Notes: generated by a model not told the origin, from the letters alone. DNA of 64,000 bases from an uncultured Alphaproteobacteria bacterium (GCA_958295695.1 OY282363.1:1113156-1177155); one strand, 5' to 3'. Positions 10,385 through 11,450 are shown, counted from the stretch's first letter. Made by a program: numbers and translations.

Positions 10385-11450
10385 TGAAAATGGTAAAAAG
10401 CTGTATAAAAACCGGTCCAGCCATTATTACACTGTTGTTTTCGCTCAATACTGTTGCTACTGAAATCACTATGTTTTCCTGCGAAGAACGCAACAGGATC
10501 GGCTATGACAGTTATAAACTTATTTATGAATCAGAACCCGGTAATGTAGAAACAATACATAGTATGAGTATTTTTGCACTTTGTATAGGTAAAATGGATG
10601 AAGGACTGACATTGTTAAAAAGAGCATCGGACGGAGGTCATGCACATGCTTCTTTTATGATGGGTATGTATTATGAAAAGGATCAAACTTGGGATGTTTC
10701 CAAATCGGTGACCGCAGATCCGGAAAATTTTAATGCTATGCTGTTTTATTTTGAAAAAGCAGCCAATCAAATTGAATCCACTCCTGATTACCCTGATGGT
10801 AATATGTTTTTTTTAGAAAGGGCGGACTTCACCAGCGCTAAGGTGTTCAGCTCTATTCCTCATATTTATTATGGCGGATATTATAATGCTTTAATACAGA
10901 TTTTGAGCAGTTCAGAAAAAGTATCTTATACGGATACTCTTGAGGTTTTGGAAAATATAGCCCATTCCGCCGAACGGTGCCTCGATAGGCCCTCCTTTTC
11001 CGTATGGGAGCCCAACCGAAGCATAGTCGCTAACGATATGCGGATCCGTTGCCAAGCTCTCCTGGATTTTGCTGAACAGGCATATCCACTGGAGCAGGAG
11101 CGTATGAATGTAGCTGAGAAGTGCGCCAATCCTGTTAGCGATTGTGCTGAACATAAAGATGTCATCCATAAAATTGGAAATTTAATGCACATAATGTATG
11201 CAAAATATAAATCGGTTTCATTATTAAATTAGATGAACAGTTAAAATTTATAAGATCATTTTGATATGGAGTTGCTAATTTACTGTAAGTAGGGCATTTC
11301 TATACGACAACTTTGTAATAGGCTATAGCCGGGATTAAAACCGAGAATACAGAAGAAACCCTCGTGAGTCGATAAGCAAGATGTTAAAAAATCAGGATTA
11401 TTATCGAATTCTCCCGCTTCGCCATTCTATCGATGAAAAAAGGGTTATAT
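10385..11450. mobile_element. Low-GC (~40%) genomic islet, likely horizontally acquired, carrying the Sel1-repeat gene; no integrase or clear TSD seen
   Basis: There is an abrupt compositional switch at both borders: GC-rich 10330-10385, then AT-rich through about 11430. Confidence 0.55.
10390..11232 (+). CDS. Sel1-like repeat (SLR/TPR-like) protein with N-terminal signal peptide, encoded on a low-GC island
   Basis: Start MVKSCIKTGPAIITLLFSLNTVA looks like a signal peptide. Sel1-like repeat signature ASDGGHAHASFMMGMYYEKDQ. Local GC is about 38-40% versus ~70% in the flanks. Confidence 0.6.
   Translation: MVKSCIKTGPAIITLLFSLNTVATEITMFSCEERNRIGYDSYKLIYESEPGNVETIHSMSIFALCIGKMDEGLTLLKRASDGGHAHASFMMGMYYEKDQTWDVSKSVTADPENFNAMLFYFEKAANQIESTPDYPDGNMFFLERADFTSAKVFSSIPHIYYGGYYNALIQILSSSEKVSYTDTLEVLENIAHSAERCLDRPSFSVWEPNRSIVANDMRIRCQALLDFAEQAYPLEQERMNVAEKCANPVSDCAEHKDVIHKIGNLMHIMYAKYKSVSLLN

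Follow-up and report, generated by a model that had tools for sequence, protein, structure and literature searches.

A horizontally acquired AT-rich islet in a GC-rich alphaproteobacterial genome: a single gene for a predicted exported protein with a Sel1-like module

The window analyzed here, a stretch of 64 kb from the genome of an uncultured alphaproteobacterium, carries an AT-rich islet of about 1.07 kb which is very probably of foreign origin and harbors one intact gene. This gene belongs to a so far unannotated family, in which a predicted Sel1-like module is joined to a cysteine-bearing four-helix bundle. GC-rich symbionts have captured the family repeatedly, each time as a single-gene islet without amelioration, and at the islet locus the divergence between two strains is locally increased about tenfold. 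These three aspects are new; horizontal islets as such, as well as the secretion of SLR or ANK proteins by sponge symbionts, are of kinds already known.

Results

Composition and borders of the islet

The GC content of the islet is 38.0%, as compared to 71.3% in the remainder of the 64-kb window. Other sections of 1066 bp have a mean GC content of 0.713 (sd 0.027, minimum 0.622), which corresponds to z = -12.5 for the islet. In a scan with steps of 200 bp, the values fall from 0.68 to 0.36 between positions 10200 and 10400 at the left border and rise from 0.32 to 0.66 at about 11200-11450 at the right border. Codon usage is equally atypical, with a GC3 of 0.35 in the islet ORF and of 0.94-0.98 in the genes of the 2OG oxygenase, ureAB, ureC, and the ABC ATPase. 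Further support comes from the nearest low-GC relative (L002, flanks of 44.5% GC), which shows 77% nucleotide identity to the islet by blastn. This homology starts at base 10388, directly in front of the ATG of the gene, and ends at base 11448. It covers the ORF and picks up again in the last part of the islet, which matches the DNA located directly 3' of the L002 gene. Host-type coding sequence of opuAC begins again just right of the islet (Table 1). An earlier note on this DNA had described a low-GC block with sharp borders which encodes a single protein; the scan of GC content and codon usage and the limits of the L002 homology confirm this description, and the coordinates are good to a few bases.

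Table 1. Features of the islet, its host locus, and the ankyrin gene (positions counted from the first base of the window)
Feature	Position	Strand	Basis or remark
AT-rich islet, very probably foreign	10386..11450	.	Composition; L002 homology 10388-11448; junctions common to L001
CDS, predicted exported protein of 280 aa	10390..11232	+	ORF; homologues; L002 homology from the ATG at 10390; substitutions spare conserved columns
Predicted Sec-type signal peptide, residues 1-23	10390..10458	+	Heuristic, likely cleavage after TVA; AlphaFold2 pLDDT <50 at residues 1-24
Sel1-like repeat region (remote homology), residues 44-137, about two helix-turn-helix repeats	10519..10800	+	Holds the DGGH motif and the peptide ASDGGHAHASFMMGMYYEKDQ
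Predicted C-terminal four-helix-bundle domain, residues 140-275	10807..11214	+	Four of the six conserved cysteines; invariant YTDTLE, ERCLxRP, VW, CxEH
AT-rich non-coding 3' tail of the islet	11233..11450	+	Final 84 bp (11365-11448) 77% identical to L002 (blastn)
opuAC remnant (glycine-betaine-binding protein), insertion scar	11457..11705	+	tblastn with L016 OpuAC: 43% identity, E = 2e-19
Orphan ABC-transporter ATPase, eroded betaine uptake operon	11842..12873	+	59% identity to the L016 ATPase; Pfam ABC_tran in L001
2OG-Fe(II) oxygenase, left-hand host neighbor	8910..9968	-	Query used to locate relatives and the locus without interruption
Ankyrin protein, 494 residues	30544..32028		Nine Pfam Ank stretches; signal-like N-terminus; 19 kb from the islet

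The only long ORF of the islet is intact and located on the plus strand, where it extends from 10327 or 10390 to 11232. The alternative ATG at 10327 lies upstream in GC-rich host-type DNA and leads to a product of 301 aa; the database entries P0001 and P0288 begin at this start. The peptide ASDGGHAHASFMMGMYYEKDQ, singled out in the earlier note, is encoded within this ORF on the plus strand. No significant secondary structure was found in the 3' tail (fold z = 0.35). In Rfam, no match to the islet was obtained at E <= 1, the sole hit being a spurious miRNA outside of it. Scans for promoter and terminator consensus sequences gave counts at the level of shuffled sequence, with no promoter consensus upstream of the gene, and a blastn search of PLSDB plasmids with the islet yielded no match.

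Concerning the mode of entry, a tRNA scan of the 64-kb window detected none, direct and inverted repeats at the islet borders were limited to short chance-like matches without a convincing case, and no integrase ORF is present inside the islet. On these grounds, a classical integrase island was rejected. An integron gene cassette was rejected as well, because the 3' tail is unstructured, shows no attC-type inverted repeat, and no integron integrase is found among the neighbors. A sister strain represented by an independent long-read assembly (L001) has identical islet junctions and carries a different allele.

The insertion scar and the host locus

Directly right of the islet, only residues 226-308 of the 316 residues of OpuAC, and thus the last 83 residues encoded, are preserved, and the N-terminal 225 residues have no match anywhere in the 64-kb window. 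The ABC ATPase gene further downstream is intact, and no match to the cognate permease of 661 aa was found in the window. Two relatives with a 2OG oxygenase 77% identical to that of the window, L016 and the NCBI "Rhodospirillaceae bacterium" MAG L017, have an intact OpuAC gene adjoining the oxygenase gene and no family gene at the locus, and L016 also carries the ATPase and the permease; their gene order is somewhat different, so that they represent no base-exact empty site.

The low GC content and GC3, the 77% identity to L002, the truncated opuAC at the right border, the missing permease, and the intact OpuAC of L016 and L017 together make a horizontal acquisition of the islet very probable. 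In this transfer, DNA of about the size of one gene passed from a low-GC bacterium into a Rhodospirillales-like alphaproteobacterial chromosome of about 71% GC. It was integrated by illegitimate recombination and thereby replaced the 5' two-thirds of opuAC in a betaine-transporter operon which is now eroded.

Domain structure and predicted export of the protein

In the Pfam database, the best match of the window protein is TPR_27 with 19.7 bits (cut-off 27), and Sel1 gives no match to it at E <= 10. Among 17 family members, a Sel1 match was obtained for one (best E = 0.19) and a sub-threshold TPR_27 match for 14, and none of the 17 reaches the gathering threshold for Sel1 (PF08238 / SMART SEL1). 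Searches with the window protein gave nothing significant in NCBIfam and nothing below E = 0.2 among PDB sequences. A relation to Sel1 is apparent from profile comparison. With hhalign, the family alignment (A1) matches a genuine Sel1 reference (P0110, Pfam Sel1 E = 8.7e-52) over residues 44-137 with a probability of 89.9% and E = 1.7e-6. In addition, positions of about 70-105 of the family profile match several long proteins with multiple repeats which are assigned to Sel1 by Pfam. These results support a remote Sel1 homology of residues 44-137, comprising about two repeats, in what appears not to be a canonical Sel1-repeat protein.

The structure predicted by AlphaFold2 on the basis of the family alignment is an all-alpha model with a pLDDT of 84.6 and a pTM of 0.80, in which residues 1-24 are disordered. 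Foldseek searches against PDB and BFVD returned nothing at E <= 1e-3, the top matches being generic TPR/SLR solenoids with TM <= 0.39. Half of the protein is modeled as a different fold, a four-helix bundle, and we consider the architecture of a Sel1-like module followed by such a bundle to be probable. The designation as a Sel1-repeat protein in the earlier note can therefore be retained only in part: it holds as remote homology for residues 44-137, but the Pfam threshold for Sel1 is missed and the C-terminal half is a predicted four-helix bundle.

In the family alignment, six cysteines are conserved (C31, C65, C197, C221, C245, and C252), together with the invariant motifs DGGH, YTDTLE, ERCLxRP, VW, and CxEH. 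Every aligned family member starts with a hydrophobic N-terminus. A heuristic based on hydrophobicity and small residues at -3/-1 assigns a hydrophobic core with a KD mean of 1.96 and the site TVA|TEI to the window protein, and equivalent signal-like sites were found in all family members. A lipoprotein was rejected, since no conserved lipobox precedes the first conserved cysteine in the family alignment. The signal peptide proposed in the earlier note is thus supported by the heuristic in all members, by the disordered residues 1-24, and by the six conserved cysteines, and export of the gene product through the predicted Sec signal is likely. The conserved cysteines would then probably form disulfides after export. 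For the mature protein, we infer from the model an acidic, all-alpha molecule of about 29 kDa with the Sel1-like module in its N-terminal and the four-helix bundle in its C-terminal part.

Size and distribution of the family

A search of 5.8 billion proteins revealed 16 homologues at E <= 4.7e-47, all of them without Pfam domains. When the family profile was compared to 1.84 billion cluster representatives, 89 relatives were detected at E <= 1e-10; with the threshold relaxed to E <= 1e-3, the number rose to 341. Most of them are 270-330 residues in length. No model in Pfam or NCBIfam covers the family, and no relative was found among the viral contigs of IMG/VR.

Table 2. Genomic context of family members
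Member	Context	GC of gene	GC of flanks	Remark
L002	Low-GC genome	0.39	0.445	Additional partial second copy
L004	Low-GC genome	0.315	0.318	Eight tandem paralogues; 1.56-Mb contig
L009, L010	Low-GC genome	0.40	0.41-0.42	At least four copies in a 2.0-Mb Bdellovibrionales MAG (OZ241921)
L003/L011	GC-rich	0.45	0.68	3.5-Mb "uncultured Alphaproteobacteria" chromosome
L005	GC-rich	0.41	0.69	
L006	GC-rich	0.49	0.72	Circular replicon
L012	GC-rich	0.41	0.59	
L019	GC-rich	0.34	0.60	Aplysina aerophoba assembly

In small low-GC genomes (L002, L004, L009, and L010), the GC content of the family gene is close to that of its host and the gene occurs in multiple copies (Table 2). In six other GC-rich contexts besides the window, it always forms a single-gene AT-rich islet, located each time at a different, unrelated locus. 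A neighbor-joining tree, which is rough and carries no support values, places the copies from GC-rich hosts in at least three clades, each beside copies from low-GC hosts, with the window clade as sister to L002. One of the GC-rich contexts, the contig of L006/L007, has identical ends of 2,463 bp and therefore represents a circle of 10,509 bp; its genes include those for a primase and an AAA_25 protein, and no recognizable virion genes were found on it. Hence, GC-rich symbionts picked up the family several separate times, once on this small circular replicon, and the source lineages are likely low-GC bacteria. The term "eukaryote-like" used in the earlier note finds no support in the sense of a eukaryotic origin, as all relatives with examinable context are located on bacterial contigs or genomes.

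In L002, L009, and L010, family genes alternate with genes for Rpn/YhgA-like PD-(D/E)XK nucleases ("Transposase_31"). As a separate observation, a fragment resembling an rve_3 integrase core follows the gene in L003, with a sub-threshold score (E = 2.6e-4, 21.1 bits vs the cut-off of 26.5).

Sponge provenance

Documented sponge metagenomes are the origin of family members or of the closest relatives of a flanking gene in three cases. L006-L008 were derived from tissue of Agelas wiedenmayeri, and L014 and L015 from an Aplysina sponge (both supplement of PMC13083261); the latter two hold the closest outside relatives of the window 2OG oxygenase, with 85% identity. L019/L020 belong to the Illumina assembly of Aplysina aerophoba MKWU00000000 (MKWU01, PMC5649159). 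The family thus circulates inside sponge microbiomes. Because of these sponge sources and the secreted ankyrin protein encoded in the window, a sponge-associated lifestyle of the host bacterium can be inferred with good support. The ankyrin-repeat protein mentioned in the earlier note is real (Table 1), and the host-associated lifestyle suggested there is plausible in view of the Agelas and Aplysina metagenomes from which family members and closest flanking-gene relatives were obtained.

Divergence and constraint between two strains

Sequence divergence was determined by comparison of the window with the sister strain L001, and all values given here refer to these two strains only. In the background flanks, 25 differences were counted in about 6.95 kb (0.36%). 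The islet has 52 differences in 1066 bp (4.9%; Poisson P ~ 6e-40), and its non-coding 3' tail alone has 10 in 218 bp (4.6%), one of them being a 3-bp deletion. The divergence continues beyond the right border, with 11 differences in the 680 bp from 11451 to 12130 (1.6%; P = 5e-5). For the islet gene, dS = 0.078 and dN = 0.045 result in a dN/dS of 0.57, which increases to 0.77 for residues 26-140, as compared to flanking genes with a dS of 0.011-0.016 and a dN of about 0.0015 (dN/dS about 0.1). Synonymous and non-coding divergence in the islet is higher than the local neutral yardsticks by a factor of 4-6.

Although the two strains differ by 42 substitutions in the ORF, it is intact in each of them. 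Of the 28 amino-acid differences, none affects one of the 49 family-invariant columns, where 5.4 changes were expected (Mann-Whitney p = 6e-4), and most changes between the strains fall on the Sel1-like surface. Because the amino-acid changes spare the conserved columns, the gene appears from this comparison to be constrained and functional, yet fast-changing at variable positions. Substitutions polarized with L002 as outgroup are balanced (19 AT>GC vs 16 GC>AT), and amelioration, i.e. drift towards host GC, was therefore rejected as the cause of the fast divergence. The locus was also considered as the target of a diversity-generating retroelement; this was rejected, since no reverse-transcriptase-like product occurs among the Pfam-annotated calls around the locus and the substitutions are not adenine-limited. 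The excess at silent sites is explained neither by relaxed selection nor by amelioration, and the symbiosis-factor explanation favored below leaves the synonymous and non-coding excess unexplained as well. For the two strains compared, the tract beyond the right border suggests that a divergent allele was imported by homologous recombination.

The earlier note had named a close low-GC homologue at the same locus of a sister strain, combined with a missing signal peptide, as evidence against its interpretation. A 90%-identical low-GC copy does indeed occupy this locus in L001, but the predicted signal peptide is nevertheless present, and therefore the copy only dates the acquisition to before the split of the strains.

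Discussion

Proposed function and alternative explanations

Taken together, a foreign islet encoding an exported adaptor with a role towards the sponge host is the explanation of the whole that we favor on balance. The single intact gene, kept under constraint, would be translated into a protein with a Sec signal and exported to the periplasm or beyond, where its disulfides would form. The exported protein may act as a protein-binding adaptor whose Sel1-like surface would bind an external partner. Because of the sponge provenance, this partner would most plausibly be a protein of the sponge host or of the host matrix. By analogy, the protein may be a symbiosis factor similar to the "eukaryotic-like proteins" of the ankyrin and Sel1 type that sponge symbionts possess, an assignment which we make tentatively. 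Such ankyrin, TPR, and Sel1 proteins were reported to be enriched in sponge-associated bacteria (PMC5635592, PMC6372511). With a Bdellovibrionales MAG among the multi-copy native hosts, an inter-bacterial role fits equally well as a host-directed one.

The main rival to a symbiosis factor is a protein of periplasmic immunity or defence, which would neutralize an antibacterial toxin, for example a periplasmically acting type VI effector, or the lytic enzyme of a predatory bacterium. In that case, GC-rich symbionts would have gained an immunity gene as an orphan, perhaps from the lineage of the attackers themselves. Sel1-repeat antitoxins such as Sel1E are documented (PMC7108748), and several properties of the family point in the same direction, namely its tandem arrays in L004 and the Bdellovibrionales MAG, the heuristically predicted export, the fast evolution at variable positions, and the occurrence of orphan copies standing alone, a typical trait of acquired immunity genes. 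However, neither a toxin nor a VgrG, a Tle-type lipase, or a peptidoglycan hydrolase is encoded beside the gene in the window, L001-L006, L009, and L010. The neighbors at the loci examined are Rpn-like nucleases, metabolic genes, or further family copies, and the sole nearby peptidase, in L004, is M10-like with HQLGH instead of the catalytic HExxH. We regard an immunity function as rather unlikely on this evidence.

An improbable variant is an arms-race cassette which is under frequency-dependent selection and shared across phyla in sponge microbiomes. It would originate from low-GC, small-genome predators or epibionts similar to Bdellovibrionales and would have been captured repeatedly by GC-rich potential prey for protection. 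In the source, it might act in the periplasm, either in self-protection or in connection with attack, and be mobilized by recombination-promoting nucleases of the Rpn/YhgA type, and allelic exchange would keep divergent alleles at the same locus. If true, this would explain why divergence is tenfold in excess, why no drift towards host GC has occurred, and why the divergence tract extends past the islet border.

It is very improbable that the islet is a selfish or neutral passenger, i.e. a gene carried in by a mobile element and left in a dead operon, where it decays without a role for the host. Its location in an eroded operon would suit such a passenger, as would the missing promoter consensus, the extreme mismatch in codon usage (GC3 of 0.35 vs 0.95), and a dN/dS which is high in relation to the neighboring genes. 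These observations are opposed by the reading frame preserved in both strains, by the untouched invariant columns, and by the persistence of intact copies in several independent GC-rich lineages. Finally, an assembly chimera or contaminant, in which low-GC DNA was misjoined into a GC-rich contig, might be suspected from the metagenomic source and the abrupt switch in composition, but is excluded for practical purposes because two independent assemblies with different alleles have both junctions in common to the base. In addition, the islet is joined without interruption to the upstream in-frame start and to the opuAC remnant, and the same pattern recurs in other assemblies.

Implications for sponge symbiosis and gene transfer

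Sponge symbionts are rich in ankyrin, TPR, and Sel1 proteins, and both the movement of their genes between very different bacteria and their binding targets are largely open questions. The islet locus provides a clean and datable case in which one gene was transferred and a visible scar was left. Furthermore, the same unannotated family is found in AT-rich islets of six further GC-rich contexts, a small circular replicon among them, with probable sources that can be identified, and the islet locus itself gives a strong signal of fast evolution. The family, with its Sel1-like module and cysteine-bearing four-helix bundle, could enter the domain databases, and the islet protein is a tractable candidate for assays of binding, phagocytosis, or competition. 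The excess at silent sites without drift towards host GC is of relevance for compositional amelioration and xenogeneic silencing.

Comparison with known systems

The Sel1 family is characterized by tandem helix-turn-helix repeats of 36-44 residues which form a solenoid, usually with three or more repeats. Like the SLR proteins of host-associated bacteria, for example LpnE of Legionella (PDB 6deh), the window protein is a predicted exported alpha-helical repeat protein of a probably animal-associated bacterium, with remote similarity in sequence and structure over residues 44-137. The gene is likewise horizontally mobile and co-occurs with a secreted ankyrin protein. In contrast to SLR proteins with typically 3-12 repeats, the window protein has about two degenerate ones, stays below the Pfam threshold for Sel1, and consists to one half of a predicted four-helix bundle with invariant motifs of its own.

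The cysteine-rich proteins of Helicobacter (Hcp family) are a group of secreted SLR paralogues in which each repeat has a disulfide of its own and for which positive selection has been reported. They share with the window family the signal peptide, a cysteine-rich fold of the SLR type, the organization as a multi-copy paralogous family, and rapid evolution. Unlike in Hcp proteins, only C65 lies in the repeat region of the window family and four of the six cysteines in the C-terminal bundle, and no direct sequence relationship was detected by the PDB sequence search.

A different parallel is given by SLR-type immunity proteins of type VI secretion systems. Sel1E, one of five sel1 genes in a row, protects against the Klebsiella T6SS effector VgrG4, was modeled on PA5087 of P. 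aeruginosa (PDB 5jkp), and has no clear export signal (PMC7108748). Common features are the tandem arrays of paralogues and an SLR-like fold, which in the window family would likewise serve to bind and neutralize a partner. The window family differs from Sel1E and PA5087 by the lack of an adjoining effector at the loci examined and by its C-terminal domain, and from Sel1E also by the predicted export signal.

Classical genomic islets and hypervariable low-GC loci, such as those for O-antigen or capsule, are flanked by conserved genes. The islet described here is distinguished from them as a single gene of 1 kb without integrase, tRNA, or direct repeats, whose product is a predicted protein-binding module rather than a biosynthetic pathway. 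With these loci it shares the atypically low GC content, the sharp borders, an allelic divergence above that of the flanks (4.9% vs 0.36%), and a divergence tract past the border which suggests allelic exchange.

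Divergence and gene erosion beside the islet

Right of the low-GC islet, of which the single gene encodes a predicted exported protein with a Sel1-like repeat region, only the last 83 codons of opuAC are left. The permease gene of the betaine transporter was not found within the window and the ATPase gene is intact; with opuAC cut down and the permease absent from the window, the ATPase gene is therefore orphaned.

Comparison with L001, a sister strain with the islet at the same junctions, revealed a tract of high divergence which runs ~600 bp past the islet's right border and then ends. 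The portion beyond this border differs by 1.6% vs 0.36% in the background (P = 5e-5), and the ABC ATPase gene shows five differences in total, none of them beyond its first ~220 bp. It has the look of a recombination tract. Further along, L001 carries ~1.5 kb of DNA which the window is without, encoding a RelE-family toxin and an overlapping 142-aa gene. L018 is a more distant relative with a genome of 3.75 Mb; its urease gamma/beta gene is split into short pieces of 52 and 123 aa, which suggests that gene decay is ongoing in this lineage.

The ankyrin gene

The ankyrin-repeat protein encoded in the window has a signal-peptide-like N-terminus. The GC3 of its gene (0.77) is clearly below that of core neighbours (0.94-0.98), and the gene may thus be an older acquisition which has in part drifted towards host GC. 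The smaller low-GC patch spans the 5′ part of an ORF directly upstream (293 aa, Gly/Asp-rich), for which a Pfam search gave no match.

Relatives of the islet gene in other genomes

In the low-GC genomes L002, L009 and L010, family genes alternate with repeated Rpn/YhgA-like PD-(D/E)XK genes ("Transposase_31/PDDEXK_2"). In L009, from a Bdellovibrionales MAG, each of the three Rpn/YhgA-like genes has the same 127-codon GTG-initiated ORF after it. The paralogue row of L004 is broken by an M10-like peptidase gene with the zinc motif HQLGH, not HExxH.

In GC-rich settings, the L006/L007 contig (12,972 bp) from the sponge Agelas wiedenmayeri has two ends identical over 2,463 bp and is therefore a circular replicon of 10,509 bp. 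This replicon, at 72% GC, codes for a zinc-ribbon/Toprim primase and an AAA_25 protein; none of its genes is recognisable as a virion gene, and the family gene is present on it as cargo with 49% GC. Directly 3′ of the family gene in L003, a 70-aa ORF resembles the end of the rve_3 integrase core domain (E = 2.6e-4, which misses the Pfam threshold). This ORF may be what is left of an insertion sequence and mark an independent acquisition of the family gene there.

Coordinates of features in the window and in related loci
Feature	Locus	Position	Strand	Details
Divergence tract	window	10416-12057
Eroded betaine ABC-transporter operon	window	11457-12873
Site without the extra L001 DNA	window	13028-13210
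Second low-GC patch	window	29100-29500		48-50% GC
Gly/Asp-rich ORF	window	29209-30090
Ankyrin-repeat protein gene	window	30544-32028	+	494 residues; nine Pfam Ank stretches, E = 8e-71
Extra segment	L001	8699-10252
Urease gamma/beta pieces	L018	9869-10343
Tandem family paralogues	L004	3134-12308		n = 8; 32% GC; 1.56-Mb genome
Interleaved family and Rpn/YhgA-like genes	L009	1437-7461
Interleaved family and Rpn/YhgA-like genes	L010	6288-7214
Interleaved family and Rpn/YhgA-like genes	L002	1232-4766
rve_3-like ORF	L003	7061-7273
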